A stretch of 64,000 bases of DNA from an uncultured bacterium (GTDB lineage Bacteria > Bacteroidota > Ignavibacteria > Kapaibacteriales > UBA2268): positions 1,515,219 through 1,579,218 of the forward strand of contig OW818654.1 of the NCBI GenBank assembly GCA_942492935.1, written 5' to 3'. Positions 22,235-38,885 of the stretch are shown here, in pieces (position 1 is the stretch's first letter; the number at the start of each line of letters is the position of its first letter). Position numbers and translations under genes: made by a program. The notes beneath the pieces were generated by a model that saw only the letters and a list, made by a program, of their open reading frames with translations, did not search any database and had not been told where the DNA came from.

Positions 22235-23344
22235 TCAATTTACATATTTCCCGAGTTCATCACTATCTGTATAAGCATAATATTTCATTACTGTATCTAA
22301 ACTATCTCTTGATAATTTGCTAACTATTTGAGGAGTTAATTTTTCTGTATATAACCATTCTGATATTCTTGTTTTTCGCAAAGTATGAATACAACGACCA
22401 TAGACTGCTTTTCGTTTTCTTTCTATGCCTGATATATTCATTTGTTTTGTGTTCCCATCTCCTACGGTATATTTTGGAATATTTAATGCTTCCAATCCCT
22501 TATTAAACCTATAGTCAATCGTTCTTGAATAATCTGATATGTTGAATATTTTACCTTTGCTTTCTTTCCTACTTTCTACTTGGTCAAATATATTTTTCAA
22601 TTTATCTGTCAATGGAAATTTGTCGGGCTTGTTACCAAATTTTGATTTTTCAAACATTATACTTTGTCTGTAATCACCATCTGTATTTAAGACTTGGTCC
22701 CATTCCATATTAACCGCTTCATTTTTACGCAATGCACAAATATAGATAGTTTGTATTAATAGATAAAATTGATAATTCTTTTCTTGCCAATAATCAAATA
22801 TTTTTTTTATTTCCTCTGGAGTATATATTTCAATTATTTTTTCTGTTTTTTTAGGTTTTAATGTTTTAATAATTGGATTTTTCCGCATCCATTCTCTTTC
22901 GATACAGTAATTGAAAAAACTTGATAACCTAATTAAATTAACCGTTGCCGTTTTTGAAGCGTGATTTCGTTTCAATAAATTATTTTCTATATGCAGAGTA
23001 ATTTTATTATCGTCATTCAAAATTAAATCTTCTGTAATATATGATTTGAATGAATAAATGTATTGCTGAAGTGTGTTTTTATGCTTAGTATTTTTCGATT
23101 GCTCAATGAAGATTTTGAACGCTTGAATGATTGTTACAGGATGATTTTCATTTCTGAAATGTTCTGGGCTTTCACTTTCTGCAATTATATCACCTGCGAT
23201 TTTACGATTTTTACGATTATAAATCAAACCGCAGGATTTCATTCTATTGCCTACTTTGTACCATATAATGCTCTTTTTACCACGAACAAAAAACCGTCCT
23301 TTACAGCCGGGCATTGAGTACGGTTTTTCTGGTGCTTTTTCCAT
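22235..23344 (-). CDS. int: Tyrosine site-specific recombinase (phage integrase family)
   Basis: The C-terminal catalytic region contains …GRCIHTLRKTRISEW (the H-x-x-R box) and …LDTVMKYYAYTDSDE, which carries the catalytic Tyr. An N-terminal SAM-like domain is present. 369 aa. Confidence 0.85.
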   Translation of the reverse strand: MEKAPEKPYSMPGCKGRFFVRGKKSIIWYKVGNRMKSCGLIYNRKNRKIAGDIIAESESPEHFRNENHPVTIIQAFKIFIEQSKNTKHKNTLQQYIYSFKSYITEDLILNDDNKITLHIENNLLKRNHASKTATVNLIRLSSFFNYCIEREWMRKNPIIKTLKPKKTEKIIEIYTPEEIKKIFDYWQEKNYQFYLLIQTIYICALRKNEAVNMEWDQVLNTDGDYRQSIMFEKSKFGNKPDKFPLTDKLKNIFDQVESRKESKGKIFNISDYSRTIDYRFNKGLEALNIPKYTVGDGNTKQMNISGIERKRKAVYGRCIHTLRKTRISEWLYTEKLTPQIVSKLSRDSLDTVMKYYAYTDSDELGKYVN

Positions 23345-23802
23345 TATATGTAATATACTTTAACAGTTATATCATACCATATATTATTCTTTTTAAATAT
23401 ATAAAATATATGATAATTAGAAGAATATTTATCATACAGTTTATAATTTACACGAGCAATATATTTGATATCTTCATATATTAACTTCCCCTCCGAATAT
23501 TTCAATTCAGAGAATCTAACATCAACACCACAATATTGATTTCCTACAAAAGAATATATTTTTTTTGCAACTTCCTGCGTTAATTCATCGCCAATTAAAT
23601 TGGATGTATCTATCAGTGAATTTAGATATTTACTTAGTGATATATCCCAATAACCAGAATAACCTGTCGCAATTAATTCTTTTTTTTGTATTTCATATTC
23701 CTTAGCATCCAAGTCCATTTGTGATACATTTGGACCCGTTGCCTCTTCCGAGCAACTAATAAACATTACTGCTATTGCAATAATTAGTAACAACTTTTTC
23801 AT
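23344..23802 (-). CDS. Prophage-encoded lipoprotein (moron; possible superinfection-exclusion candidate)
   Basis: MKKLLLIIAIAVMFISCSEE is a lipoprotein signal with a Cys lipobox. It lies between the integrase and the repressor-like genes. Confidence 0.5.
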   Translation of the reverse strand: MKKLLLIIAIAVMFISCSEEATGPNVSQMDLDAKEYEIQKKELIATGYSGYWDISLSKYLNSLIDTSNLIGDELTQEVAKKIYSFVGNQYCGVDVRFSELKYSEGKLIYEDIKYIARVNYKLYDKYSSNYHIFYIFKKNNIWYDITVKVYYI

Positions 23803-24188
23803 TGTTTTAAATTCCTATATGTTTTTAAAAACTCTAATAATTGACGAATTTCATTTTGATACATTTTTATTTTTTCTTCTACTTTTTTCTCAATTTCATC
23901 ATCGTAATAATCACCTTCACGCATCATTAAATTACTATCTGGAATAGTTTGCTCTTCATAATTTGCAACTGCACTATTAAATCTTTGTTCTGTCTGATAA
24001 CGATTTAATAACCAATTCATATCCAATTTTGGTGCTATTTCTGCTATTCTCACTAAATCAATATTATTTTTTTTAATCCAAGAATATAGAGTGCTGTTAG
24101 ATATATTCATCATCTCTGCTAATTGAGCTGGATTATCACAATCATAATATTTATATAATTTATTCACTATGGAAATTGTTTTTATCAT
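23799..24188 (-). CDS. HTH DNA-binding regulator, repressor-like; paralog of the next gene
   Basis: …NPAQLAEMMNISNSTLYSWIKKNNIDLVRIAEIAPKLDMNWLL is a helix-turn-helix with the same layout as 24185-24586. It is transcribed away from the Xis-like gene. Confidence 0.55.
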   Translation of the reverse strand: MIKTISIVNKLYKYYDCDNPAQLAEMMNISNSTLYSWIKKNNIDLVRIAEIAPKLDMNWLLNRYQTEQRFNSAVANYEEQTIPDSNLMMREGDYYDDEIEKKVEEKIKMYQNEIRQLLEFLKTYRNLKQ

Positions 24189-24586
24189 TTCATTTCGCTA
24201 TATGTTTTTAAAAAATCTTTTAAGGTTTTTATTTTCGCTTCTAAAATTAAAATTTCATTTTGAATAGATTTTTCAACACTATTTTCTGAATTTTTTAATT
24301 GCTGTAAATTCTCTTCCATATTATCTATTTCACGTTTGTAATACTGTTGAGTAGGATTTGTCGATACATAAACATCATTCTTCACTGGTTCTATTCCCAT
24401 TAACCAATTTAAATCAATCTTATTATTAATCTGCATTATTCGCATTAAATCAATATCCCTTTTTTTTGTCCAAGTATAAATTGTACTGACAGGAATATTC
24501 ATTTTACGTGATAAATCTGTTGGATTATCGACTTCATAAAGCGTAAATAACCGTTCTAATACCTTTTTAAATTGTTCCTCGTTCAT
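24185..24586 (-). CDS. HTH DNA-binding regulator, repressor-like; paralog of the previous gene
   Basis: …NPTDLSRKMNIPVSTIYTWTKKRDIDLMRIMQINNKIDLNWLMG. It is the first gene of the leftward operon at the divergent switch. Confidence 0.55.
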   Translation of the reverse strand: MNEEQFKKVLERLFTLYEVDNPTDLSRKMNIPVSTIYTWTKKRDIDLMRIMQINNKIDLNWLMGIEPVKNDVYVSTNPTQQYYKREIDNMEENLQQLKNSENSVEKSIQNEILILEAKIKTLKDFLKTYSEMK

Positions 24587-24812
24587 TTTATACCTCGTAA
24601 ATAAAAAAAATTTTCTTTTTTTTAAAATATTTTTACGATTTTGTTTGGAAAACTCGTAAAAACGTTTTAATTTTAAATGTTGTTAGTTTTCAATTCTTAA
24701 AATTCTTTTTTGTTCTTTAACAACTTTTGTTTTCACGAAAATATACGATAATTATTTTTAGATTTTTCATAATTATAATTTATTTTTTCAAAACTATTTT
24801 AGGAGTTCACAA
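24587..24812. promoter_or_regulatory. Divergent promoter/operator region of the lysogeny switch
   Basis: 226-bp ORF-free AT-rich spacer between oppositely oriented regulator genes. It contains reiterated TTTACGA/ TCGTAAA-containing motifs (cctcgtaaat, ttttacgatttt, actcgtaaaaacg, cacgaaaatatacgataa). Confidence 0.5.
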
Positions 24813-25100
24813 ATGAGTGAAATTATTAGATGGTACAGCATACCAGAAGCAAGCAAAATGACAGGTCTTGATGATGAATTTATTCGTCAAGCAATTGCTC
24901 AAAAGCTACTTATAACCGCTAAGACAGGGCGTCTCGGTAGTAAGGAAATTATTTCTAATGTTGAATTGAATCGTTTTTCGATGCAACTTCAATATGGTAA
25001 AAAATTCAAAAATGCAAAATTACAGGCAAGGGAAAACACGAATATTCAAAACGAAAATGCGTTTCATAAGCAACTCGATGATTTATTAGCAACAGTATAG
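24813..25100 (+). CDS. Excisionase/MerR-type HTH protein (Xis-like)
   Basis: …WYSIPEASKMTGLDDEFIRQAIAQKLLITAK… is an excisionase-family HTH pattern. It is the first gene of the rightward early operon and is preceded by the SD-like sequence TAGGAG. Confidence 0.5.
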   Translation: MSEIIRWYSIPEASKMTGLDDEFIRQAIAQKLLITAKTGRLGSKEIISNVELNRFSMQLQYGKKFKNAKLQARENTNIQNENAFHKQLDDLLATV

Positions 25101-25459
25101 GTGATGATATGAATGAGAAAATTTTAGCAACAATATTACTTTTCAGTTTTTTTTTAATAATTGTATTTGCTTATTGTTTTTCGATGTATTTGGAATATTT
25201 GGAATATAAAGAATTAAATAATTTTAAAAAAGAATATTATATTAAATTTATTAAAGAGAAAATAAAAGATGATACAAAATAATCAAAAACCTGTGTTAGA
25301 CTTCCCGAAAATGAAAGAACTGAAGCAAGAGCATTTTGATTGGCAAACTATTAATTTTTTTCATAATATGTCAATCTGTGCTATTAGTGAAACACACAAG
25401 AAAATTTATGCTCAAGTTTATAAATTACTCAATCCAGTAAAAAATTTATAGGTGAGAAA

Positions 25460-25747
25460 ATGAAAATTAAATTTGAAATAAAGAAAGAAATTGAAGTTGA
25501 TTTCTATGGGCAACATTGCAATTCTCAAAGTGGATTTTGTCAGTATTTGTTCGTATCACATATAACTACGCAAGCTCAATGTTTGTTGTTTACTAATACT
25601 TTGCATTACGAACCTGCAAATTACATTAAACGATGTGAAAAATGTATCAGATATTTTGATACTGAATTAATGACAATTAACATAGAAAAAGAAAAAGATG
25701 TGTTATTTACTGAAATGAGTAAAATAGAAATTAAAAAATCAACATAG
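25460..25747 (+). CDS. Hypothetical early protein, Cys-rich
   Basis: ORF in the compact co-directional early operon. An SD-like sequence is upstream. Confidence 0.4.
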   Translation: MKIKFEIKKEIEVDFYGQHCNSQSGFCQYLFVSHITTQAQCLLFTNTLHYEPANYIKRCEKCIRYFDTELMTINIEKEKDVLFTEMSKIEIKKST

Positions 25748-25926
25748 CCGAAGGAGTGAGAAAATGAATGACAAAATTGAATCTGAAATGAAGAAAAATA
25801 AAGAGACAATAATACGTATCGGAAAAAATTTGAAAGATTTAGGAGTGATTAAAATGCAAATCAAAGGAATCAAAAAAAACACAATTGTAAAAAAAATTAT
25901 CAAATAAAGAGCCGAAGGAATAAATT

Positions 25927-26115
25927 GTGAAACTCACTTGTGAAACTTGCAATAAGCAATATGAATTTGAAGATGATATGGATAAATTTCCATTAGAAAT
26001 GAAATGCAATTGGTGTCCAGTTTGTGAAGATACTGCTACAGATGTTTATTTTGAGTGGTATGTAGATATTAACAAGCAAATTACAGATGATCCAAATCAA
26101 ATAGGTTTGTTTTGA
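25927..26115 (+). CDS. Small zinc-ribbon protein
   Basis: CETC…CNWCPVC is a pair of CxxC motifs. Confidence 0.45.
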   Translation: MKLTCETCNKQYEFEDDMDKFPLEMKCNWCPVCEDTATDVYFEWYVDINKQITDDPNQIGLF

Positions 26116-26153
26116 TTATGAATTATTGATTATTAATTATTTCGGAGTTAGAA

Positions 26154-26546
26154 ATGTTTGAAATAAAATCTTATGAAGAGATGGAAAGACTTCCTCTCTC
26201 AAAAAAATATGAATATGCTGCATATTGGCAGGCAAAGTTAGAAGATGGAAATAAATTAATTACAAGAGATTTTAATAAAATTGATTGGTATGATGTTCTT
26301 TATTATGTTGAGACAGGTGCTATCTATGATTTAAAACTTACACAAAATTTAATTCCACTTGATGACAGCGACCAGTTGATTGGTGAAATTATTGTTGATC
26401 CACGTTCTAATGAACGGTTTATGATTATAGAACAAGATAAACTATTTGTACACGTAAAAAATTATATAATATCGTATCGTTATCTTCAAGAATATTACAC
26501 CCGCCTTGATGGTTCACGTTTTGAAAAATTAGCAGTGGAAGAATAA
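26154..26546 (+). CDS. Hypothetical early protein
   Basis: ORF preceded by an SD-like sequence, in the operon. Confidence 0.4.
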   Translation: MFEIKSYEEMERLPLSKKYEYAAYWQAKLEDGNKLITRDFNKIDWYDVLYYVETGAIYDLKLTQNLIPLDDSDQLIGEIIVDPRSNERFMIIEQDKLFVHVKNYIISYRYLQEYYTRLDGSRFEKLAVEE

Positions 26547-26759
26547 CCTATGGAAAAATATATAATTACAGAAGGGCAATTATCAATGTTAAGAAGTAGA
26601 TATTTAATACTTGCAGAACAATTAGAAAATGCAATTAACAGTGATAAAAGTGGTTTAGCATTAGGTTTTGAACTTGGTAGGATACACAGAAACATTTTTT
26701 TATATTGTTCGGAAATTCTTGATATTCAATTTGAAAATATTTTTACAGAGGAATAATCT

Positions 26760-27104
26760 ATGCAAAAACTAAAAATATATATTTCCGGCAAAATGAATGG
26801 TCTTAATAAAGAGCAATATTTTATGCTGTTTTTTGATAAGTATAATGAATTAAGAAAAAAATATCCTGATGCAATTATTATCAATCCTGTTTTTGTGGGC
26901 TACGAACTTGAATTAATTATTGAATTGAAATATGGTCGCAAGCCCACATACAGCGAATATTTGATGTATGATTTATATTATTTGTCAATGTGTAATGCTA
27001 TTTATATGCTATCTAATTGGCATAATTCAAATGGTGCTAAGACAGAGCTTGCTTATGCTCAAGCGTGTAATTTCCAAATTTACTATCAAGACTTGGAGGA
27101 GTGA
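26760..27104 (+). CDS. DUF4406-family protein (nucleoside 2-deoxyribosyltransferase-like fold)
   Basis: IYISGKMNG near the N-terminus and …NWHNSNGAKTELAYAQACNFQIYY at the C-terminus match the DUF4406 pattern common in phages. Confidence 0.55.
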   Translation: MQKLKIYISGKMNGLNKEQYFMLFFDKYNELRKKYPDAIIINPVFVGYELELIIELKYGRKPTYSEYLMYDLYYLSMCNAIYMLSNWHNSNGAKTELAYAQACNFQIYYQDLEE

Positions 27105-27289
27105 TGTACTTATCATTCAAAGACAAAGAACGCAGGGACAACCAAAATAGAATTAACCAAACTGTTACAAAATTAGTTACTGTTAAATCTAAATGTTGCA
27201 ATGCCAAAATTATTTATTACGATAAACAAAATTTCGCATATACACAAGATAGAATTTGTTCAAAATGCAAGGAGATTGTTTCTATATGA
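27101..27289 (+). CDS. Small zinc-finger protein
   Basis: CCNAK…CSKC. ATGA-type overlaps occur at both ends. Confidence 0.4.
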   Translation: MMYLSFKDKERRDNQNRINQTVTKLVTVKSKCCNAKIIYYDKQNFAYTQDRICSKCKEIVSI

Positions 27290-27741
27290 GAAAGACTGAA
27301 TATCACGATTCGCACTTGCAAGCATTTGAAAATGTAGTAAATTATGTTTGCAAAAATTTAAAGTTAGACAGACAGAAATTATTTTCTAAAGGTCGTTATC
27401 GTTACAGTACTTTTGGTAGATATTTCATAGCTTATTTGTTGAATAAAAAAGAAAAATTAGATGTATCATTAATTGCAGATATGATGAATACGGATAGAAC
27501 AAATATTTACGATTTTGTTTTATCGGCAGAATATAATTGTAAGCAAATTGAAAAATATAAAAAATTAATTAATGATTATATTCCAATTATGCCAATTAAT
27601 GTGTATTGCACAGTATTTCTAACAAATGATAGATTGTTTATTCAGAAAAAAGTGTGTACAGATGATGTAATATTGAGACATACAATTGAAAAGATTGAGG
27701 AGCAGGTTGATATTTATAATTTAATACAGAGTGCAAAATGA
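27286..27741 (+). CDS. Hypothetical early protein (possible DnaA-C-terminal-like HTH)
   Basis: Start chosen at the ATGA overlap with the upstream gene. …RYSTFGRYFIAYLLNKKEKLDVSLIADMMNTDRTNIYDFV is HTH-like. The similarity is weak. Confidence 0.35.
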   Translation: MRKTEYHDSHLQAFENVVNYVCKNLKLDRQKLFSKGRYRYSTFGRYFIAYLLNKKEKLDVSLIADMMNTDRTNIYDFVLSAEYNCKQIEKYKKLINDYIPIMPINVYCTVFLTNDRLFIQKKVCTDDVILRHTIEKIEEQVDIYNLIQSAK

Positions 27742-28082
27742 AAGATTTTTATGTAGAAGAATTAAAAGTATGTGTAGGTGCAATTCTGGCTGATATTCGT
27801 TTGCATCCACATACTTCATTGGAATATCGGTTTACAATTGTATTTGGTTTGTTAGATATGCTAATGTTGATTGACACAGATAATGAATATTTGTACAGCA
27901 AAGATTATGGAGTTTGTTTGCAAACTTCAATGAAACGACAGAAGGATTTTACACGATTACGTGATGAATGTCATTTGTATAATTACTATTCACAAACAGG
28001 CAGGAGTGATAGAGTTATGAATTACTTAGCCGAAAGATTACAAAATTTTCAATTAATATGGTTTCAGCAATGGCAAAGGTAG
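27738..28082 (+). CDS. Hypothetical early protein
   Basis: ATGA overlap with the upstream gene. Confidence 0.4.
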   Translation: MKDFYVEELKVCVGAILADIRLHPHTSLEYRFTIVFGLLDMLMLIDTDNEYLYSKDYGVCLQTSMKRQKDFTRLRDECHLYNYYSQTGRSDRVMNYLAERLQNFQLIWFQQWQR

Positions 28083-28422
28083 AAAAATGGTAACAGTTAC
28101 TACAACAACGACTGGGACAAGCCCAACATCACCAAGCATTGATATAAATTTTAGGTATGAAGAAATTTATAAAACTCGTGGTTTTTGGTGTGGGACAGGA
28201 ATATGGAACTCCCAAAATAATCACAAGAATACAAAAGTTTCGATTGAAAAATTAATTAAAAGAAATAAGCAAAAATTTAAAAAAGGGTAGAAAAATGTTT
28301 GTAATTAATATGATTTTTGTATTTGCTTTGGGATTGGCTTTTATATTTACAGCTTACAAAATAGGTCATTATTTTTTGAAGGAAAAACCTCAAAAAAAAA
28401 AAAAAAAGAAAAAAAGCAGGAA

Positions 28423-28893
28423 TTGACTGAAGCAGAGGATTATGTTAGTGAAGATGACAAAAATTTAACTCGTGAGATAACTCGGGCTTATTCAAATTAT
28501 CTTTTTGAATTAGCAGAAATTGAGAAGCAAAAGAGATTAGCATTAGAAGCAGAGAAATTACAAAAGAAAAAAAATGATGTAGAGAACAATCCTGATTTAT
28601 GGGAAAGAGTATTAATTGAAAACAGGGATATGATGTTTGATTTACGTGGTTACGGTGCGTGTAGTGGTTTCAGTGCAATTGGTAATTATAATTATAATCC
28701 AATAGGTGGTTACGATGAAATGTTTATTAAAAAAGATAGTGCAGAGTATGAGCTGTACAAAACATCTAATATATGCTTGGACTTTCATAATGCAGATAAT
28801 GTACTGTATATTCGCTTTATTCCAAGCAATACAAGGGCAAGAGATATACACACAATTACTGGGAGTGGTTGTGTTTTTCGTCCTTCGCATTGA
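28423..28893 (+). CDS. Hypothetical early protein
   Basis: The ORF follows an A15-rich homopolymer at 28389-28413 that ends a small membrane ORF. Confidence 0.4.
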   Translation: MTEAEDYVSEDDKNLTREITRAYSNYLFELAEIEKQKRLALEAEKLQKKKNDVENNPDLWERVLIENRDMMFDLRGYGACSGFSAIGNYNYNPIGGYDEMFIKKDSAEYELYKTSNICLDFHNADNVLYIRFIPSNTRARDIHTITGSGCVFRPSH

Positions 28894-28934
28894 ATTAAAA
28901 ATTAATGATTTAAATAATAAAATGGAGCTTAAAA

Positions 28935-29189
28935 ATGACTGAATTGGATTTTTATAAATTTATCACTAAAAACAAACTTGAATATCATTGGGAAATAAAT
29001 GCAGGTTATGAAGATGTTATTTTATTTCTTAATTATTCACAGTTAAAAGATATTGATAAACTTCTTTCACGTGATTTATTTGATGAAGGTGGTATAATAT
29101 GCCATTGGACGAATGGCTGTATAGGTTTTTGGGCAAGTGTTATTGCGGATCATTATGATTTAGATTTAACAAAAATTTTCGAAAAATAA
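28935..29189 (+). CDS. Hypothetical early protein
   Basis: ORF in the operon. Confidence 0.4.
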   Translation: MTELDFYKFITKNKLEYHWEINAGYEDVILFLNYSQLKDIDKLLSRDLFDEGGIICHWTNGCIGFWASVIADHYDLDLTKIFEK

Positions 29190-29636
29190 TAGGAAAAGGG
29201 TAGAAAAATGATAACAGTATATATAATAACACATATCATATTTTCAACATTTGTGTTTTTTGTGATGATAAATATTAACTATACAAAAGAATTTGCTTGG
29301 AATTATGATGATAAGAAAATATTAATATGGACTATCATTATAACAGCATCTATTGCAGGACCAATATTTTTAGTAATAGCAATATTTAATAAAATAATTA
29401 AACACGTAAGGAGCAAAAATGTGTAATGAATCTGAAATACCAGAAGAATTAATTGCTAAATATATAGTTGAATTGATGAGAGAAGATCCAATAAAATTAA
29501 CACAGTATGTATTAAGTGTAATTGCACAAGATATTTACAAAGCTAATGTAGGTACATTTACTTTTTCTCAAAATATGGATTTAGACGGCAAACGAATTAA
29601 TGTAAAAATTGTTGGTAAAATTAAGGAATTATAAAA

Positions 29637-29927
29637 ATGACTGAATTAATTCAATTAAGGCATAATGTTATCGGCACAAATGAAGCTGATAAAATAATGG
29701 AATTAATATTTCTTACTCACGAAATGGAGTATGAAATGAAATTTAATAAAGATGACAAAGTTGAAATTGTCAAAAAAAATAAGTGTAAAACACATAGGTT
29801 TATGGCTTCTTATGATGCTCTTGTTTCAGTAATGTTAGAAATTGGAGCATTAATTGAACAAGAATTTCCTGAACAATATAAAAAAGCATTTGAAAAAAGT
29901 AAAACTCAAACTAATTTGGAATTATAA
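29637..29927 (+). CDS. Hypothetical early protein
   Basis: ORF in the operon. Confidence 0.4.
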   Translation: MTELIQLRHNVIGTNEADKIMELIFLTHEMEYEMKFNKDDKVEIVKKNKCKTHRFMASYDALVSVMLEIGALIEQEFPEQYKKAFEKSKTQTNLEL

Positions 29928-30139
29928 ATATGCGTACAGATATTTATGAATGTCCTGATACACTTGTTTCTCTTTTGAATAGAATTAAAAAGATTAACAA
30001 GAAATTGCAAGAGCATTACGAACCAGATTCACCTCTGATTGATATAATGCTAAGATTATCATTTGAGCTTTTGGATTTAAAGTACAAACAGTATCAGAAA
30101 AAATAAACAGTATTTGAACACACTTTTTTTGAGAATAAT

Positions 30140-31078
30140 ATGAATAATTGGATTAAATTATACAGAGCATTAAATAAGCATTGGGTTTTTGATAATTCCG
30201 ATTATTTAAAATTGTGGATTTATATACTGACTACTTGTGAGTATGAAACGGCGATCCGTAATTCTAATACTAAAAAAATAGAACTTCAACCGGGACAAAT
30301 GCTTTTCACTTTGGAAAATATGAGTGAGGTTTGCAATATGCCATACATAAAAATCAGACGGTTTATTGACAGGTGCATAAAGGACGATATGATAAGTATT
30401 AAGCTAAATTGTAAACAAAATTCAGTGCTAAGTGTTTTAAATTGGGAGACTTACCAATCTGTAAATGTCAATGAAAATAACGAAAAAACATTGAGCAGTC
30501 ATTTGAGCAGTCATTTGAGCAGTCATTTGAGCAGTCATTTGAGCAGTCATTCTGACGTTGTAAATGATGAAATACCAAAGAGTTATAAAGATGACGAAAA
30601 TAATTTGAGCAGTCATTTGAGCAGTCATTTGAGCAGTCATTTGAGCAGTCATTTGAGCAGTTCATATAATGATAAAGAGAATCCTAAGAATCCTAAGAAT
30701 AAAAAGAAAGAAGAAATAACTACTTTCTCTACTGCAAAAATGAATTTTTTAAATTTTGATTTTGTTTTGGAATTTGTAATTAATTCAATTCCAGAATCAA
30801 AAGTAATTTCAGAAGAGAATTTAAAATTTTCAGTAGAGAAGTGGTTAAATCTTAGAACTAATTCCGAATGGCGAAATAAAAATGGTGTTTTGATTTCCGA
30901 TTGGAAACAGGACATTAAAACTTGGATCAAAAATGAAATTATTTATCAACAAAATTTAAAAGGAAATAAAAATGATAGAAGCACAAGAGCTGGCAAGCAT
31001 ATTGACGAACCACAACAGGTCAATATCGAAGACACACTCCGAAAATTCGAGCAATGGAGAGAGAAAAATAACACTTGA
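30140..31078 (+). CDS. Replication initiator/replisome-organizer-like protein with internal (SSHL)n repeats
   Basis: N-terminal winged-helix-like segment (…LKLWIYILTTCEY…QPGQMLFTLENMSEVCNMPYIKIRRFIDRC…). Two blocks of 5 x 12-bp direct repeats lie within the ORF. Confidence 0.45.
   Translation: MNNWIKLYRALNKHWVFDNSDYLKLWIYILTTCEYETAIRNSNTKKIELQPGQMLFTLENMSEVCNMPYIKIRRFIDRCIKDDMISIKLNCKQNSVLSVLNWETYQSVNVNENNEKTLSSHLSSHLSSHLSSHLSSHSDVVNDEIPKSYKDDENNLSSHLSSHLSSHLSSHLSSSYNDKENPKNPKNKKKEEITTFSTAKMNFLNFDFVLEFVINSIPESKVISEENLKFSVEKWLNLRTNSEWRNKNGVLISDWKQDIKTWIKNEIIYQQNLKGNKNDRSTRAGKHIDEPQQVNIEDTLRKFEQWREKNNT
30487..30663. repeat. Iteron-like tandem repeats (two clusters of 5 x AGCAGTCATTTG separated by ~55 bp) inside the replication-initiator-like gene
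   Basis: Perfect 12-bp direct repeats at 30487-30546 and 30604-30663. Confidence 0.8.
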
Positions 31079-31586
31079 ACAGTGGTTTATGGATATAGTT
31101 TTCAAAAAACTACCTCTTTATCAAGCTGTAACTTGCGATGAAGCAACTGCATTTGCTATTCTTGAAGAGTTACGCAGACAAGATTTTCAAGATTGGCAAC
31201 GTGAAGTAGCTGAATGTTGGATATTGCAAGGTAATTGGCAATACAAAAGCCCAAAAAAATTAACAGTAAAAGATTTTTTTCCATCAGAAAAAGAAATCGC
31301 TGGTTTTGATGCTTTTATGTCCGTTGAGGTCGTTCAAGCAAAGTTACGAGAACTTGGAAACTACTACAAACAACAGTACGTGGCGAGTATCAGAGCAGAG
31401 ATTGAAGAAAAAAATTTAAAAGAATATGTTAATTTAAGAAAAAACTATTTGTCATTGTGGAAAAAAATCGTAAGTTTGCAATTTGATAATTCTACATTGC
31501 AAGATGAAATTATCACTTTAAAAAATTTATTAGAAACAGCAAAAAATAGAATTTCAAATTTAGAGGAGAGACTAAAAAATGACTAA
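30972..31586 (+). CDS. Hypothetical protein with C-terminal coiled coil (alternative start at 31089)
   Basis: As drawn, it overlaps the upstream gene by 107 nt. The internal Met at 31089 lies 10 nt after that gene's stop. …LQDEIITLKNLLETAKNRISNLEERLK is coiled-coil-like. Confidence 0.4.
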   Translation: MIEAQELASILTNHNRSISKTHSENSSNGERKITLEQWFMDIVFKKLPLYQAVTCDEATAFAILEELRRQDFQDWQREVAECWILQGNWQYKSPKKLTVKDFFPSEKEIAGFDAFMSVEVVQAKLRELGNYYKQQYVASIRAEIEEKNLKEYVNLRKNYLSLWKKIVSLQFDNSTLQDEIITLKNLLETAKNRISNLEERLKND

Positions 31587-32202
31587 TCCAGAAAAATATA
31601 AAAACATTTTCGGTTGGTTTAATTTTGAAGCAGTTTATGATATGATTTATAATTCAATCGTAAATAATGGCACGTTTATTGAAGTTGGAGTTTTTGAAGG
31701 TAAATCTCTTTGCTATATGGCGGAGTTAAACCAGATTTACGGCAAAAACTTGTCAATCATTGGAGTAGATCATTTTCGAGGAAGTGATGAGCCACTTCAC
31801 CATTTAATGTTAGCTAACAGTCAGATTACACTTGCAGATAAGGCATATCAAAATCTTCAGAACGCACAAGTTTTGAGGGATATTGTTTTGTTGCCGTTTG
31901 CTTCAGAAGAGGCGAAAGACTTGTTCAATGACAACAGTGTTGATGCTATTTTCATTGATGCAAGCCACGATTACGAAAATGTGAAAGCTGATATTCTTCA
32001 TTGGTTGCCAAAAGTCAAGGACGGCGGAATACTTGCGGGACACGATTATTACGGAAATCATAAAGAAGTGAAATTAGCTGTAGATGATAGCTTGCACAAT
32101 TACGAAATTTTCAGTTCTGTACAAACGGAGTGCTGGTGGATTTATAAAACGCCAAAAAATCAAACTTCTGCAAGCGTGGTTAAACGTTCTTGTTGTAATT
32201 AG
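31579..32202 (+). CDS. Class I SAM-dependent methyltransferase, TylF/Methyltransf_24-like
   Basis: …GTFIEVGVFEGKSLCYMAEL… is the SAM motif I region. …DAIFIDASHDYENVKADILHWLPKVKDGGILAGHDY matches the conserved C-terminal block of TylF-type O-methyltransferases. Confidence 0.6.
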   Translation: MTNPEKYKNIFGWFNFEAVYDMIYNSIVNNGTFIEVGVFEGKSLCYMAELNQIYGKNLSIIGVDHFRGSDEPLHHLMLANSQITLADKAYQNLQNAQVLRDIVLLPFASEEAKDLFNDNSVDAIFIDASHDYENVKADILHWLPKVKDGGILAGHDYYGNHKEVKLAVDDSLHNYEIFSSVQTECWWIYKTPKNQTSASVVKRSCCN

Positions 32203-32246
32203 TATAAAATATCAAAAAAATTTTAAAAATTCAACAGAGAGGATTT

Positions 32247-33392
32247 ATGACAGAAATAATTAATTTAAGAGAAGACCTTTTAAGGCAAATTGAAAATAAT
32301 GAAGTAATTAAGCCGAAAGTTACTGTAACTGCTTATACTTCAACGAGAGACAGACATTTTACAACTTTACCATTGTTGCTGTTTGGTTTGCTTCATCAAA
32401 CACGGAAGCCCGACAAAATCGTTATTTATGACGATAGCCCGAACAAACCTGACTTGCAAAATCATTGGATGTTCAAACATATTTTTGGAATTTGCAACAT
32501 TTTGAATGTTCCGTATTACGTTTTTTACGGACAGGGAAAGGGACAAGTTCTAAACCACCAGCACGCATTAATGACGGCTGATACAGACATTGTGTGGCGA
32601 TTAGATGATGATAATTATCCAGAGCCGAATGTATTGGAAACACTTTTACGAAAATTAGAAGATGACACAGTAGGTGCGGTTGGTTGCAATGTTTGGCATC
32701 CTGACCGTCCAATTTATCCTGTTCCGAGCTATGCGTTTGGAAAAATGACAAAAGGTGTATTTCACCAAGTGCCTGAATGGTTTTATATTCAAGATGGGCA
32801 AGATAGATTTACAGAACATTTATATTCAACTTTTGCATATAAAACCAAAATAGCACGAACTACACCGGGTTATCCAATGGATTTAAGCCCAGTTGGGCAT
32901 CACGAAGAAACAATTTTCTCGCATCAAATTTACAGAACAGGGCATAAATTAGTTGTTACTCCCGATTGTAAAGTTTGGCATTTACGCAATCCAGAAGGTG
33001 GAATAAGAGCTTACAGAGACGAGTTTTTGTGGAAGCACGACCAAGACAAGATGGATGTTTATATGAAAAATTGGGGTTACAACGATAAACCGACAAAATT
33101 TGCAATACTGAAAAATGGTATTGGCGACCAATTTGCATTTAAAACCATTTTACCAGAGTTTGTTGCTAAATACAAAGATACTCACGACTTAGTAATTTCG
33201 AGCAGTAATCCAGATGTTTTCCACGATTCAAAGGATGTGTTTGTAATGAATTTGAATGAAGTTACTTACTTTGTACCTCAAGACAAATGGGAAGAATACA
33301 ATGTTTACAGAATTATGGCAGAACAGGAAAGTAAAGGACAAGTGTTAAATTTAATTGACAGTTATAGAAAATTATATCAATTGGAAAATTAA
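32247..33392 (+). CDS. Family 2 glycosyltransferase (GT-A fold)
   Basis: VTVTAYTSTRDRHFTTLPLLLFGLLHQTRKPDKIVIYDDSPNKPD matches the GT2 N-terminal signature. The DxD region is …DIVWRLDDDNYPEPNVLETLL. Confidence 0.6.
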   Translation: MTEIINLREDLLRQIENNEVIKPKVTVTAYTSTRDRHFTTLPLLLFGLLHQTRKPDKIVIYDDSPNKPDLQNHWMFKHIFGICNILNVPYYVFYGQGKGQVLNHQHALMTADTDIVWRLDDDNYPEPNVLETLLRKLEDDTVGAVGCNVWHPDRPIYPVPSYAFGKMTKGVFHQVPEWFYIQDGQDRFTEHLYSTFAYKTKIARTTPGYPMDLSPVGHHEETIFSHQIYRTGHKLVVTPDCKVWHLRNPEGGIRAYRDEFLWKHDQDKMDVYMKNWGYNDKPTKFAILKNGIGDQFAFKTILPEFVAKYKDTHDLVISSSNPDVFHDSKDVFVMNLNEVTYFVPQDKWEEYNVYRIMAEQESKGQVLNLIDSYRKLYQLEN

Positions 33393-33940
33393 AATGTGTG
33401 AAATAAAACAAATCAATAAAGAAGAAGTAATTTTTTTACAGCAAAATGCAACTTATTCACTTGTGGAGTTCATTGATATATTTAAAAAGTCGCTTGGGTA
33501 TGGTGGACAGCAAGTATTAAGCCCAATAGTTCTTAGCAATGGAAAAATAATGTTTACTTTTAATGTAATAAATACAAATAAACCTTTATCAAAAATATTA
33601 TTAGAGCAAAATGGATTAATGCAGGGAAATTCTAAATGAGTGAAGAATTAAAAGTAAAAAGTCAAATTCATATTGCTTTGATGGAAAATAACACAATTCA
33701 AGTTTCTCACGATGAAATTGAGAAAGCGGGAGTTGCTACTGAATTGCTATTTGGAGCATTAGTTTTATTTTGGCAGTATTCGGAATTTAAAGAAATAGAC
33801 GGATTTGTTGATCATTGTGAGAAAGCAAAAGAATTATTCCAAAGTAATTTTGTAGAATATTTGGAAAATTATCTCACAAAAAGAAATCATAAAGTTGAAT
33901 TAGTAAATAAATTTTTCAATCAATTGCAGGAAGTGAAGTA

Positions 33941-34414
33941 ATGAATACTATCATCATCAGTCCATTTTCAAACAAATTGGGCGATAAACAAAATGCAAAA
34001 AATTATCCATATTGGCGAGAGCTTGTAGGCAGGTTGCGTCTTGCGGGTATGTACGTGATACAGTTGGGTGCAGGTGATGAACCCAAAATAGGTGCAAATG
34101 GTTACTTGTATAATCAGAAATTTGATGAAATTGCAAAGTTAATCAGAAACAGTCATTTGTGGTTATCTGTAGATAATTTTTTGCATCATTTGGTAAAAGC
34201 GGAATGTCCCGAGAAACCGGGCATTGTCATTTGGGGTCCATCGGATCCCGAGCTGTTTGGTTATCCAGAGCAGATTAATGTTTTGAAATCACGTGCTACA
34301 TTAAGACCGAGACAATGGGCTATTTGGAATGAATGTGAGTTTAATCCAGATATATTTCCCGATTATAACGAGATAATGGATATAATTAAAAACAAATTAT
34401 TTGCTACTGTTTAA
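33941..34414 (+). CDS. Possible glycosyltransferase-9 (heptosyltransferase)-like C-terminal-domain protein
   Basis: …LIRNSHLWLSVDNFLHHLVKAECPEKPGIVIWGP… weakly resembles the GT9 donor-binding region. It lies downstream of the methyltransferase and GT2 genes. Confidence 0.3.
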   Translation: MNTIIISPFSNKLGDKQNAKNYPYWRELVGRLRLAGMYVIQLGAGDEPKIGANGYLYNQKFDEIAKLIRNSHLWLSVDNFLHHLVKAECPEKPGIVIWGPSDPELFGYPEQINVLKSRATLRPRQWAIWNECEFNPDIFPDYNEIMDIIKNKLFATV

Positions 34415-34555
34415 TTTCAATATGTGCAGGCGATACAAAGGGAAAGTAAACTATTGTAAGACAAATTTGCACGAAATACTCATAATTCAAGCTAATTAAC
34501 TACGAATTAAGAGAAAATAAGAGTAAACATAAATACAAGGTAAACAAGGTAAATT

Positions 34556-34861
34556 ATGAAAGAAAAAACAAATAAAAAAACTTCAAAAACGGCATCTAAT
34601 CAAGAAAAATTAGCTTTTGAAGATATAGATGGAAATACTTTTGCAAAGGTAGTAAAGAGAATTGGTTTTCATTACTCCGAGTTTAGCCGTTCAATTGGTT
34701 ATTCGGGAGGATATTTGTATAGAATGATAAGGTTTAAAAAGCAAGTGCCAATCAAGTTTATAAGGGAATTACAACTACAAGTTGGTTACGAAGATTTGTT
34801 ACTTGCATACAATCAAGTTATAGAAGAAATTGAAAAAAATAACGTAAGGTATGAAGATTAA
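34556..34861 (+). CDS. Hypothetical protein (possible HTH)
   Basis: ORF after a 140-bp gap. Confidence 0.35.
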   Translation: MKEKTNKKTSKTASNQEKLAFEDIDGNTFAKVVKRIGFHYSEFSRSIGYSGGYLYRMIRFKKQVPIKFIRELQLQVGYEDLLLAYNQVIEEIEKNNVRYED

Positions 34862-35306
34862 TTATAGATTTGTAGTTTAAATATGAATATAGTAAAATGC
34901 AATAATGGTGCTTGCAGTCGCAAAAATAAATGTTATAGGTACAGTATGCCTACTATATTTCCCGTTATTGCAAAAACAATCATACCTACCTATTGGAAAG
35001 GTAAATTTCACTGTAAATATTTTATGAAACTTAAAAAAGAAGTGAAAGATGGAGTTTGAATTTATTTATAATTTTTATAACAAAGAAGCCATTGCTATAA
35101 AAATTGATGGAATCAAACCGGAGGAGATTACGGACAGAGAGATGATTTTCCAATTGGGCTTAACACTGTTGAGCAGAATTGAAAAAAATCATTTGAAAAG
35201 TATGAATTGTACTTTTTTATATCACAGTGACCGCCCAAATGAACTCAAGCAATTGCCACGTACATATTGGGAAGAATCACATTTTTATCAAAAAATCAGA
35301 GGAAAT

Positions 35307-35502
35307 AATGAACACAGTTAGAACAGGTTGGGAATGCCCTCGTTGCAATGCTATACTAAGCCCAGACGCAACATTTTGTACTGTTTGTCAAGACAAAAAG
35401 AAAACAGCACCAAAGCCACAGGAAAGCCCAAAAGAGACTATTGCACCAGCAACAAAACCTATTCCAAAAAAGAAACTTGAAAAACCAAAAAGTAATTGGT
35501 AA
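35307..35502 (+). CDS. Small zinc-ribbon protein with a Lys/Pro-rich tail
   Basis: MNTVRTGWECPRCNAILSPDATFCTVCQDKK. It is the last gene before the GC-rich terminator element. Confidence 0.45.
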
Positions 35503-35573
35503 ATCCCCCTGCCCCCTTTTAAAAAAGGGGGAAAAGAAAAATCCCCTTAGAAAAAGGGGGAAGGGGGATTTCC
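35501..35573. terminator. GC-rich three-hairpin element (copy A), probable bidirectional terminator at a convergent junction
   Basis: aaatccccctgcccccttttaaaaaagggggaaaagaaaaatccccttagaaaaagggggaagggggatttcc contains three C5 and three G5 runs that can pair as a Y-shaped junction. A near-identical copy is at 39713-39785. Confidence 0.6.
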
Positions 35574-36098
35574 TAAACTGTGTGTATTACCTGCACTCCA
35601 TTTTCACTGAATTTTATTTTTACTTTTTCATTCAAAAAATCGTAAACCTCTATCAAAAAACCGATATAAAATTGATTTATAGGATTGTTTATATTTACTT
35701 TATTTTCTAAAATATTTGCAAATTGCAAAGTGTCAAGCTCCGAATTAATCGGAGCATATTTTTTATAAATATTGATAGTATCAAATAATGTTTGGTAGTA
35801 TAACATTTTTAAGCACCTTTTTTGATAAAATAATAATTTGCAATATTGCTAATTTGTTCTTGTGGAGTTAAAAATTTGAAACTGTTTTCATTCCATAAAT
35901 CAAACGTCTCAATGTAAATATCGGAGTAATTTTCTTGAGTTTGTTTAAAGAAATTATAAACTATGTTTATATCGTAAATTTCTTGATTTTCCTGCGTTCT
36001 AATAGCTTTATTTGTTCTATTTGATTGAATGTAATATAATAGAAAATTTAAAAATATTTTACTTTTATTCTTAAAAATATATTCTTTATGAATTAAAT

Positions 36099-36587
36099 CT
36101 AATAATGTTTGGTCATCATAAGACCAAGTTTATCAATTGAATGCTCAATCATATATTTAATTTCTGGAATAGTAATTTTAAAGAATTTTAATTCATTTAT
36201 CAAAAAATCTAATGTTTTTTGATATTTGTAATTAGATATTTTTTCAATCTTTATATCTGGGAGATTTAATTCATTTTTATAGCTATTATAAATTTTCAAA
36301 ATTTTGTCAATAGGTCCGATATAGCAATTTTTTCTATAAATAAATTCAATAAAAACATTTTCATAATTATCAATTGTAATTTGTTCAAATTCAATTTGAA
36401 ATTGATAATTATTAAAAGCATTATAGCGACTAACATTTTTTTCTTGAGTAGGAATTTTAGTAATTACATCACTACTCCAAATTTGATTTTCTTTAGTATT
36501 GATAAGCAAAAATATTGCTAATCTATAGTTTTTAAAAGCAACGTTTTGCAACGTTGCTATTACTTTTTTAGTTTCATTTAAATTCAT
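36099..36587 (-). CDS. Hypothetical protein
   Basis: ORF abutting the J-domain gene, separated from it by 1 nt. Confidence 0.4.
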   Translation of the reverse strand: MNLNETKKVIATLQNVAFKNYRLAIFLLINTKENQIWSSDVITKIPTQEKNVSRYNAFNNYQFQIEFEQITIDNYENVFIEFIYRKNCYIGPIDKILKIYNSYKNELNLPDIKIEKISNYKYQKTLDFLINELKFFKITIPEIKYMIEHSIDKLGLMMTKHY

Positions 36588-36588
36588 T

Positions 36589-37140
36589 TTAAGCTCCTTT
36601 CAATTCTTTTTTTGAATAACTATTCATAATTTTTGAACCGTATTTATTTCTAATATCAATAATGTTTTGTGGTTTACTTTTAAATGATTTTTTCAATTCA
36701 TTAGGACGCCAAAACCACATTTTTTTGCCCGGAGCAAATAAAAACCCAATTTCTTTTAATTCGTTTTTAATTGGAAAAGTAGCACCACTTAACCAAATCC
36801 ACGAGCCGATTAATTCAATAATTACAAATTCAAAATTGATAATTTTATTAATAATTTCTTTATATTCCATTTCTAAATCAATATCAATAAAATCATTTTC
36901 TACATTTGAATTATTCATAGTAGCAATATTTAACAATAAATATTCATATTCATTATTTATTTGTTGCATTATTGAAGTAGCTTGAGGATCTTTATTTATA
37001 TCGGGATGCCAAATTTTAGCGAGCCGTTTATATTCATTTTTCAATGAATTTAAATCATAGCAATTTTTTAAATATTCAATTTCAATCTTTTTCATTTTTT
37101 TATTCCTATATCTAAATTTAAATTTTCTTTTTAGTAACAA
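36589..37140 (-). CDS. J-domain (DnaJ-like) protein
   Basis: …YKRLAKIWHPDINKDPQATSIMQQINNEYEYLL shows the HPD tripeptide inside a helix II/III J-domain context. Confidence 0.65.
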   Translation of the reverse strand: MLLKRKFKFRYRNKKMKKIEIEYLKNCYDLNSLKNEYKRLAKIWHPDINKDPQATSIMQQINNEYEYLLLNIATMNNSNVENDFIDIDLEMEYKEIINKIINFEFVIIELIGSWIWLSGATFPIKNELKEIGFLFAPGKKMWFWRPNELKKSFKSKPQNIIDIRNKYGSKIMNSYSKKELKGA

Positions 37141-37493
37141 ACTTTGTTACAAATATAGTAACGTATTAGTTTCAAAAAAGTTTCAAAGAAAATAAAAATA
37201 ATTTTCAAAAAAAATATTTTTAAATCTTAATCCTATGAAAAATATAATACTTAGTATTAGAAAATAATTTTTAAGAAAAAAAAATAAAAATAATTTGAAA
37301 CATTTTGAAACTAAAAACGTATATATAAATGTAATCAAAATGATTACAAAAAAAATAAAGTAAATAATTTTATGAATAAAGTAATATTTCAATAAAATAA
37401 TTTGCAACAAATTGAAACTAAAATCGTATATAAAAAAGTAACAAAGTATGTTACGGAAAAGAATTTTTAAAATTAATATAAGGAATTAAAAAA
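37141..37493. promoter_or_regulatory. Divergent regulatory region with three copies of a TTTGAAACTAA(A/T)ACGT(A) motif
   Basis: The motif occurs at 37165-37180 in inverted orientation and at 37305-37322 and 37410-37426 in direct orientation. GTAAC/GTTAC dyads are also present (gttacaaatatagtaac). Confidence 0.5.
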
Positions 37494-37754
37494 ATGTATA
37501 GCTATGAATTATTAGAAAATGGAATTTTTATCAAGGGAGATTTTTCGCAATATCTAACCGGACCATACTTAGATTTAGAATTTAGTTTGATTGAAATTAA
37601 CGGAGATTCGGGGATAGAATATACTCCAGAAGGTTTGTTTGTTTATAATATTGTGGATAATAATCCAGAATATTTTTACATAATTGAAAAAAATTCAATA
37701 GGTGAAACTATTGCAAAAATTACAATTGAAAATAATAAATTATTAATTATTTAA
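37494..37754 (+). CDS. Hypothetical small protein (first of four cassette-like genes)
   Basis: ORF followed by the conserved hairpin-SD cassette. Confidence 0.4.
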   Translation: MYSYELLENGIFIKGDFSQYLTGPYLDLEFSLIEINGDSGIEYTPEGLFVYNIVDNNPEYFYIIEKNSIGETIAKITIENNKLLII

Positions 37755-37797
37755 ATCATCGCCCGGCTCGTGCCGGGCTATATAAGGAGCAGAAAAA

Positions 37798-38031
37798 ATG
37801 GAATATTTAATTAATGAAGATGACCATGTTTTAATAGAATTTGATAATTCTATCACAGTAGATATGGATTTAAGAATAGATTATAAAGATTCAAACGAAG
37901 GAGTTGGATTTTGGAATATCGAAATTTTAACTCCAGATTTTAAAATTCTTTTAGAAGATGACACAAAAGAAAATGCACTCACAAAATCATTAAATATGGT
38001 TAAAAGTTTAAATTATTATTATAGTCTTTAA
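37798..38031 (+). CDS. Hypothetical small acidic protein
   Basis: Starts at the ATG of cassette 1. Confidence 0.4.
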   Translation: MEYLINEDDHVLIEFDNSITVDMDLRIDYKDSNEGVGFWNIEILTPDFKILLEDDTKENALTKSLNMVKSLNYYYSL

Positions 38032-38078
38032 TTTAATCACCGCCCGGCTCGTGCCGGGCTATATAAGGAGCAGAAAAA

Positions 38079-38432
38079 ATGAAATCCAATTTAGATTTTT
38101 TAATAGGTGTTTCAATTAGAAAAAACACAAATACCACAGATGTATTTAAGATCTTAAAATTTATTTGGTCAGAGGATGATAAAATTTGCTGGGTTTGGGG
38201 TGAAATAAGCGATTTTAAAACCTCAATTGTAAGTAGTTATGTTAAATTTGCTATATTTACGGAATCATCTATTTCAAGCGAAGAGTTTGATTTTTTGTCG
38301 GAACAATCGGAAGCAATAAACGTTGCAACAGATATAAATGAAACTATTACATTGATAAAAATTTTAGTATGGGCGGAAAGTGATTGTTTTAATGAAGAAA
38401 GATCATTTTATCATATTGTAAATAATATTTAA
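38079..38432 (+). CDS. Hypothetical small protein
   Basis: Starts at the ATG of cassette 2. Confidence 0.4.
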   Translation: MKSNLDFLIGVSIRKNTNTTDVFKILKFIWSEDDKICWVWGEISDFKTSIVSSYVKFAIFTESSISSEEFDFLSEQSEAINVATDINETITLIKILVWAESDCFNEERSFYHIVNNI

Positions 38433-38474
38433 TCACCGCCCGGCTCGTGCCGGGCTATATAAGGAGCAGGAAAA

Positions 38475-38885
38475 ATGGAAATCATTTTAGATAAAACTTT
38501 GATTAAAGATGTTCCAAATACACAGTATAAAATTAGTATTACAAGAGACAAAAATGTTAGATTTAGCAAATATTTGTCTCAAGAATTAAATTATAAATTT
38601 GCTATTACTAAAAATGGAAATGATTTATTTCTTTTCAGTATAGGAAGTGGTTTAGAAATTGCAAATAATCACTATTGCAAGGTAAAAATCGCAGGTGAAA
38701 TTCTTTTAGAAAATTCGAATTTAAGAGATTACGGTGCTTGGGATCTATTGGCAGAAAAAACGGAAATTGACAATGAAACTTATTGGAAATTATCAATTCC
38801 AGAATCAACATTAGAACTATATAGAGAAATTGACGCAAGAAATGAAGAGTGGGCAAAAGACGAAGAGACAGAAGAGGCAGAATGA
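38475..38885 (+). CDS. Hypothetical small acidic protein
   Basis: Starts at the ATG of cassette 3. Confidence 0.4.
   Translation: MEIILDKTLIKDVPNTQYKISITRDKNVRFSKYLSQELNYKFAITKNGNDLFLFSIGSGLEIANNHYCKVKIAGEILLENSNLRDYGAWDLLAEKTEIDNETYWKLSIPESTLELYREIDARNEEWAKDEETEEAE

Follow-up and report, generated by a model that had tools for sequence, protein, structure and literature searches.

The 64-kb window analysed in this study, a stretch of contig OW818654.1 from an uncultured bacterium to which all coordinates below refer, holds a prophage, with a tyrosine integrase gene at 22235-23344 (- strand), repressor-like genes at 23799-24586 (-), a rightward early operon at ~24.8-35.5 kb and leftward structural genes at ~39.8-61 kb. 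The G+C content of the window is ~31%, and a flanking host gene (15550-17778, -) finds its best match, at 84% amino acid identity, in a metagenome-assembled genome of Candidatus Kapaibacterium, the next ones being from Bacteroidales/Cytophagales at 64-68%, which makes a Kapabacteria-like host of the FCB group probable. Included in the early operon is an intact open reading frame (ORF) of 312 aa at 30140-31078 (+), here called rep, whose predicted product has the build of a replisome-organizer-type initiator composed of a winged-helix N-terminal domain, a disordered linker and a small helical C-terminal domain. Two clusters of 12-bp direct repeats lie inside rep, and it is the role of these repeats, as iterons of a candidate replication origin, that is considered here.

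The iteron unit is TTGAGCAGTCAT. Cluster 1 (30491-30550, +) consists of five exact head-to-tail copies, beginning at gene nt 352 and placed inside a zone that carries iterons throughout the protein family discussed below; cluster 2 (30605-30661, +) has four exact copies at 30605-30652 followed by a 9-nt partial one, TTGAGCAGT, giving a total of 9.75 perfect units within the ORF. The presence of the repeats far above chance is confirmed: all nine occurrences of the 9-nt core AGCAGTCAT in the window fall in the rep repeats and on one strand, and when up to two mismatches are allowed, six scattered single matches appear elsewhere in the window compared to ~6 expected by chance. No further iteron copies and no second binding-type region were found anywhere in the 64 kb at this stringency, and exact 24-nt iteron scans of genome contigs and viral contigs returned zero matches. 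A previous reading of this DNA from sequence alone (the sequence-only reading) had described five perfect repeats, twice, translating to (SSHL)5 in each case. The two clusters are real and do lie inside the ORF, but the positions given were off by 1-4 nt, and in the AGCAGTCATTTG register each cluster amounts to four exact copies and one imperfect copy. The in-frame tetrapeptide repeats likewise stand, except that the ORF frame reads cluster 1 as (LSSH)5 (aa 118-137) and cluster 2 as (LSSH)4-LSS (aa 156-174).

The history of the array can be partly read from its copies. All window copies are 100% identical, whereas family arrays with at least four copies show 65-97% matches, which points to a recent expansion. 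Tandem Repeats Finder (TRF) reports a 114-bp period, present 2.0 times over 30480-30703, and the two 114-bp units align at ~80%, which shows that cluster 2 arose from a tandem duplication of cluster 1 plus its flanks. A 54-bp A-rich spacer (30551-30604, +) separates the clusters, and cluster 2 is followed by a 9-bp-periodic A-rich array (30677-30712, +; GAGAATCCT AAGAATCCT AAGAATAAA AAGAAAGAA) that starts at gene nt 538 and in which TRF detects period 9 at 30678-30700. From its sequence, the spacer looks like a decayed copy of this 9-bp-periodic region. A CRISPR-like or contingency-locus reading of the repeats was rejected, given that the units are contiguous, with no spacers between them, and that changes by 12 bp keep the frame.

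The protein encoded by rep provides the link to a known class of initiators. A profile built from the window protein and 100 relatives aligns with the G38P protein of phage SPP1 in hhalign (99.6%, E 5e-25), the match taking in the N-terminal 122 aa and, on the SPP1 side, residues 4-130 of G38P, and 7 of the 101 aligned relatives match PF09681 (Phage_rep_org_N) directly. PHROG 2514, named 'DnaD-like helicase loader', matches the window protein at 3e-18 over aa 1-201 only, and PHROG 17768, 'replication initiation protein', matches it more weakly. In tblastn searches, the N-terminal 105-117 aa match replication proteins of phages of Staphylococcus, Lactobacillus, Listeria, Anoxybacillus, Enterococcus, Pseudomonas, Vibrio and Shewanella at 21-32% identity. 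A HMMER scan of 1.84 billion representative proteins gave 2905 relatives, none above 35% identity and nearly all restricted to the N-terminus. By these alignments, Rep thus belongs, as a remote relative, to a very large family. Other searches were negative: neither the full protein nor its N-terminal domain alone found a match in word-indexed protein searches, the full-length query having probably been swamped by SSHL words, and a single-protein scan of viral contigs revealed no relatives. The exact 312-aa product is absent from a collection of 15 billion proteins in which the neighbouring 165-aa product of the same contig is present; in the source record, the rep gene may have been left unannotated, called from a different start or marked as a pseudogene, perhaps on account of its repeats.

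Structure prediction agrees with this assignment and defines what the repeats encode. The AlphaFold2 (AF2) model, computed with the family alignment, shows the helix/strand pattern of a winged helix at the N-terminus (aa 1-110; 30140-30469, +), with pLDDT values of 84-98 up to aa 100 and ~81 for aa 101-110, consistent with a predicted origin-binding domain. The winged-helix-like N-terminus proposed in the sequence-only reading is borne out by the confident model and by Foldseek and HMM matches to winged-helix proteins and phage replisome organizers. Among the predicted viral structures of BFVD there are 51 matches at E<=1e-3, led by entries named 'Replisome organizer' (down to 1e-13), 'DnaD domain-containing' and 'Replication initiator'. 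The matches in the PDB, by sequence and by Foldseek, are weak and of generic winged-helix type (MarR-, GntR- and CAP-type regulators), and no solved structure of the G38P-type family turned up among them. Residues 112-201 are predicted to be disordered (pLDDT ~40), followed by a helical C-terminal domain at aa 202-278 (30743-30973, +; pLDDT 72-92). The repeats are therefore predicted by the model to encode a disordered linker between two confident domains.

The C-terminal domain, with its motif ...EKW...EW..NG..ISDWKQDIKTWIKN, is of a different kind from what the database label implies. It aligns (hhalign 93%, E 3e-7) with an unnamed domain of consensus ...GW..G..MKDWKAAVRTW..N that ends ~20 of the 150 best family representatives and to whose 'GW..G..MKDWKAAVRTW' signature the window counterpart is EW..NG..ISDWKQDIKTWIKN. 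The C-terminal 117 aa gave no Pfam match even at E<=10, DnaB_2 (PF07261) included, and BLASTP of the window C-terminus against protein P0019 gave none either. The label 'DnaD-like helicase loader' is misleading for the window Rep, because its C-terminus is without DnaB_2 and the PHROG 2514 match ends at aa 201. A role of this domain in helicase recruitment is proposed.

Further evidence comes from the position of repeats in the family at large. All 13 annotated phage homologues examined, from phages of the eight genera listed above, carry an array with a period of 11, 12 or 22 bp that starts at gene nt 323-353. From IMG/VR, 80 loci were retrieved with a narrower alignment, 68 of them being distinct for the array count, and an array was scored as a tandem repeat with a period other than 9, a score of at least 40 and a start in gene nt 290-470. 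Such an array is present in 64 of the 68 distinct loci, with period 11 in 55 of these, compared to 1.8% (34 of 1934) of the 181-nt bins taken elsewhere in these loci as a control; arrays are thus ~50-fold enriched at this gene position relative to flanking DNA. The sequence of the iteron unit varies from phage to phage. Pseudomonas phages Orisa and KLEP17-4, the nearest relatives by tblastn, carry iterons (GAACCAGCAGT and GAACAGCAGGT) whose AGCAG core is related to that of the window unit. At the protein level, 150 representatives show an 11-aa periodicity at residues ~110-140 (e.g., QQTNNKQTTNEQQTNNK), with a minority of 4- or 8-aa repeats corresponding to 12- or 24-bp units. Differing units, a period of 11 bp that is not a multiple of three and 9-mers used in two reading frames (see below) together argue for selection on the DNA and not on the peptide, and to judge from their sequences, the family arrays are DNA-level elements rather than peptide repeats. 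Comparison of repeat number among related elements, as the sequence-only reading had advised, shows that it does vary: two IMG/VR genes that are ~99% identical (L040 and L046) differ by a 24-bp, two-unit indel in a 12-bp array. Together with the predicted disorder of the encoded segment, this upholds the idea of a linker variable in repeat length.

A second conserved element accompanies the iterons. A 9-bp array of AAGAAT or AATAAT type stands right after the iterons in 12 of 13 annotated homologues, and just downstream of them in 52 of 68 IMG/VR loci. The 9-periodic AAGAA motif is seen in 68 of 80 distinct loci, read as K-N-x in 43 and as x-E-x-K in 25, and an AAGAA(T)NNN array at ~gene nt 385-480 is found, across three phyla, in most of the G38P-family genes examined (loci L001-L014 and L016-L095), its frame sometimes being switched by 8- or 10-bp spacings. 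The use of two reading frames suggests that the AAGAA 9-mer is an element of the DNA and represents more than A+T richness. It is carried by the window, by phages of Bacillota and Pseudomonadota and by uncultured viral contigs. In the two accounts of SPP1 cited here, the region is termed simply an AT-rich DNA unwinding element (DUE) (PMC6316719, PMC5737612). In the window, the 9-mers are presumed to be the start of the unwinding element, and the putative DUE can be assigned to 30670-30800, a segment of ~76-80% A+T; no other extended stretch next to the iterons is of lower stability. The assignment, thermodynamically weak, is made by analogy to the DUE of SPP1. DnaA-box-like 9-mers with one mismatch were found at two positions only (30943 and 31456) and were given no weight.

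In SPP1 the arrangement has been worked out experimentally. Its oriL is embedded in gene 38 and comprises AB-box iterons, direct repeats specifically bound by G38P, and an adjacent AT-rich DUE, and 356 bp are enough to support theta replication in vitro with a reconstituted system (PMC5737612, PMC6316719). By TRF, gene 38 has an 11-bp array (4.6 copies) at nt 360-410 and a 9-bp array, AACAATGAT, with 3.6 copies at nt 418-449. SPP1 and the window therefore share a homologous N-terminal origin-binding domain and direct repeats that begin ~350 nt after the gene start, with a 9-bp-periodic, A-rich/AT-rich region behind them. They differ in that SPP1 has ~4.6 imperfect 11-bp units in one cluster and the window 9.75 perfect 12-bp units in two, in that their C-terminal domains cannot be aligned, and in their hosts, which are Bacillota for SPP1 and an FCB-group bacterium for the window. 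Phage 80alpha requires its G38P homologue, ORF20, for replication, and no complementation of an ORF20 deletion is possible in trans, implying that the gene contains the origin (PMC5499656). The staphylococcal initiators as a group (80alpha ORF20, phiNM3 gp23, phiN315 SA1791 and PVL orf46, labelled 'DnaD-like helicase loader') are 25-30% identical to the window N-terminus in tblastn and have 11-bp arrays that start at gene nt 343-347, comprise 6.7-7.9 copies and lead into 9-mers, either AAGAATGTA or AATAATGAG; their copies are imperfect and their C-termini of DnaB_2/DnaD type, unlike the window Rep, which lacks a Pfam DnaB_2 match.

Given the homology to G38P and a comparative anatomy in which array position and 9-mers recur, the 12-bp repeats are very probably the replication origin of a temperate phage integrated in an FCB-group (Kapabacteria-like) chromosome. 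This origin would lie within the coding sequence of the initiator that acts on it, a remote member of the 'replisome organizer' family typified by SPP1 G38P. In the mechanism that we propose, induction would lead to expression of the 312-aa protein from the early rightward operon. The N-terminal winged-helix domain would bind the ten head-to-tail 12-bp sites (5 + 4.75 copies of the unit), and the multimeric nucleoprotein complex so formed would destabilize the adjoining AAGAA-type 9-mers and the A+T-rich DNA at ~30670-30800. The small C-terminal domain, possibly together with the orphan protein encoded downstream, would then bring in the replicative helicase of the host, which is proposed here because the phage ORFs scanned include no recognizable helicase or loader, and replication would begin in theta mode from what would be the sole origin of the prophage. 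The origin DNA would double as the code for the disordered inter-domain linker; a linker of this kind would tolerate the gain and loss of repeats, which could explain why the cis element is found inside the gene.

Alternatively, the protein might bind the repeats mainly for autoregulation, for handcuffing-type control of copy number or incompatibility, or as an oriR-like fork barrier, with initiation taking place elsewhere, for example at 37.1-37.5 kb. Precedent exists in SPP1, where G38P binds two regions and binding to oriR is proposed to stall replication forks (PMC6316719). The two clusters of the window exceed the usual 3-8 sites, and the prophage reaches its highest A+T content at 36-38 kb (GC 0.21), where its duplex stability is also among the lowest. 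However, the window offers no counterpart to the second binding region of SPP1 in the two-mismatch scan: no iteron-like sequence is present at 37 kb or elsewhere, which would leave the initiator without a site there, and the 37-kb region resembles promoter/operator DNA instead. Moreover, it is the in-gene site that initiates in SPP1, and the genetics of 80alpha imply likewise. We consider this alternative improbable.

Several observations do weigh against the origin interpretation. Considered in isolation, a 12-bp in-frame unit with 100% identical copies also fits a young peptide repeat made by slippage, and the 12-bp spacing, which puts successive sites ~50 degrees out of helical phase, departs from the 11-bp norm of the family. 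The window protein alone has no Pfam match at threshold, PF09681 included, and the collections searched contain no close relative (best 35% identity, over the N-terminus only). The putative DUE lies only ~1 standard deviation under the early-region mean in a nearest-neighbour stability profile and is not the least stable DNA of the prophage, being surpassed by the intergenic DNA at 36-38 kb. Lastly, no helicase or loader was recognized among 26 early-region ORFs (22235-38885, the shortest ORFs left out) compared to PHROGs, and the helicase steps of the mechanism are conjecture for this reason. Some members of the family, namely phiNM3, phiN315 and StB27, are also without a helicase or loader gene downstream, and such a partner thus appears not to be a strict requirement of the family.

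The first of these observations could be extended to the view that the repeats are solely a feature of the protein, a slippage-made (LSSH)n linker with no role in cis, the origin being elsewhere. Their encoding a disordered segment, the identity of the copies, as recent slippage would give, and the lability of repeat number in relatives are all compatible with it. The family argues otherwise: arrays of 11 bp, which cannot be peptide repeats, occupy the same gene position in 55 of 68 homologues and in SPP1 are the proven G38P binding sites, the ~50-fold enrichment applies to this very position, and conserved AAGAA 9-mers follow the window array as they do in the family. A purely protein-level role of the repeats is accordingly judged highly improbable. 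That Rep is instead a winged-helix transcription regulator, the repeats being its operator or unrelated, is suggested by the 'regulatory protein' annotation of some homologues and the PDB matches to MarR-, GntR- and CAP-type regulators, but it is barely credible in view of the specific match to G38P and 'replisome organizer' models rather than generic regulators, the location of homologues directly upstream of DnaB- or DnaC-type genes and the requirement for ORF20 in 80alpha replication.

Relationships to other in-gene origins can now be put in perspective. The sequence-only reading had proposed an origin within rep in the style of lambda O; the layout is supported by homology and comparative anatomy, but the family is that of SPP1 G38P, and lambda O is an analogue of function and fold, not the proper reference. 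Lambda has its iterons mid-gene, at O-gene nt 349-433, followed by an AT-rich tract, hence at the same gene position as the window, and its O fold resembles the window N-terminus, as seen in two lambda-O-type N-terminal domains among the BFVD matches (E 4e-6 and 1e-4): 'GpO N-terminal', at 4e-6, and the 'O protein' of phage ECP1, with TM 0.90 over 81 aa. Sequence homology to lambda O was not detected, either in hhalign with the family profile (0.3%) or through a Pfam match. The four lambda iterons are annotated at 18 nt each, with a start-to-start spacing of 20-24 bp, and are dyad-symmetric; lambda also encodes the loader P, whereas no loader was recognized among the window ORFs scanned. Lambdoid phages, too, vary in iteron number, with four in lambda and six in Stx phages (PMC7466680).

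Within the G38P family itself, a 12-bp period is a minority state, shared with Lactobacillus phage iA2, the IMG/VR loci L039, L040 and L046 and Siphoviridae sp. ctekg1. These have in-frame units at the same gene position (AACGATCTGAAC, 4.8 copies; AACAACGAACTG, 5.3-7.3 copies; AACAACGAGCTG, 2.3 copies) that are unrelated to the window unit. Unlike the two perfect clusters of the window, each of these loci has just one cluster, with copies that match at 73-88%. Plasmids of the RepA_N type have the iterons of their origin midway along rep. Their initiators (RepA of pSK41 and pTZ2162; PDB 4pt7, 4pql) gave weak Foldseek matches that are not significant (probability 0.84-0.90, E 0.05-0.09) and no sequence match to the window Rep, and they serve plasmid replicons and not, as in the window, a phage replicon.

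Downstream of rep lies an orphan gene (31089-31586, +) whose product has a coiled-coil C-terminus. It occupies the slot where relatives carry a DnaB- or DnaC-type helicase or loader gene, in SPP1 the genes of the loader G39P and the helicase G40P immediately downstream of gene 38, and it is possibly part of the replication module. The product is unmatched in PHROGs, and in Pfam it gives weak leucine-zipper matches only, none of them significant; its sole database match is its own sequence. The overlap of 107 nt with rep, noted in the sequence-only reading, holds for the longest ORF (30972-31586) relative to the rep stop at 31078. The single database product for the gene (P0151, 165 aa, 100% identical) starts at an internal ATG at 31089, 11 nt past that stop, which renders the overlap doubtful, and it may be an artefact of ORF calling. 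A scan for sigma-70 promoters around rep gave 17 sites compared to 13.1 +/- 3.5 in shuffled controls, hence no excess; the scan does not cover promoters of Bacteroidota type. Elsewhere in the early operon, an ORF of 161 aa (27256-27741, +) has a weak, sub-threshold match (E 1.7e-4) to Bac_DnaA_C of Pfam, the helix-turn-helix of domain IV at the DnaA C-terminus, and its product could bind DnaA boxes or interfere with host initiation.

A more speculative extension, which we regard as rather unlikely, concerns the AAGAA element and the double array. The element may be a specific recognition element and not a generic DUE, for example one at which the organizer binds single strands or the helicase lands, in a logic similar to that of the DnaA-trios. 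The 114-bp duplication would then have created two tandem origin modules, both consisting of iterons and 9-mers, of which the upstream one has 9-mers in decay, and the ten out-of-phase sites would form a spiral instead of an array on one face of the DNA.

Other parts of the window show repeats of their own. At 37300-37450 there are two ~30-bp direct repeats (TTGAAACTAAAAnCGTATATA...), with a small palindrome behind each, GTAATCAAAATGATTAC in one case and GTAACAAAGTATGTTAC in the other; by sequence, they resemble promoter/operator units that form a pair where divergent genes meet. Two copies of a G+C-rich hairpin, CGCCCGGC-TCGT-GCCGGGC, with TATATAAGGAGCAGAAAAAATG after it, lie ~280 bp apart at 37760-37801 and 38041-38081; these cassettes resemble a repeated terminator-plus-ribosome-site, each leading into a small ORF, in DNA otherwise of 25% G+C. 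Two long leftward ORFs, 43564-47475 (-; 1303 aa) and 55270-59004 (-; 1244 aa), are rich in tandem repeats, those of the former recurring every 33, 51 or 66 bp and those in the first half of the latter every 42 bp, and have a local G+C of 0.43-0.47 compared to 0.31 overall; judged by size and position, they may encode tail-fibre-like and tape-measure proteins. The host-side DNA has a 140-bp tandem repeat (1.9 copies) with GACCTC..GAGGTC palindromes and a 38-bp repeat (2.1 copies), at 2553-2813 and 11476-11556.

The layout described here has long been known and is proven in SPP1, and the window presents an ordinary example of it in a little-studied host. Its importance lies, first, in locating a probable origin and initiator in an otherwise unannotatable prophage of a Kapabacteria-like lineage that is without phage genetics. 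Furthermore, the SPP1-type layout of an origin inside the organizer gene would be extended to the FCB group, such that three phyla (Bacillota, Pseudomonadota and the Bacteroidota-related one) appear to share a common plan of winged-helix domain, iterons and AAGAA 9-mers coding for a disordered linker, and C-terminal recruitment domain. The rule that a G38P-like gene carries a tandem array of 11/12 bp at nt 320-470, which held in 94% of the loci checked, predicts origins in this family of phages. The most interesting by-product of the comparison is the frame-independent AAGAA 9-mer element that stands beside the iterons family-wide.

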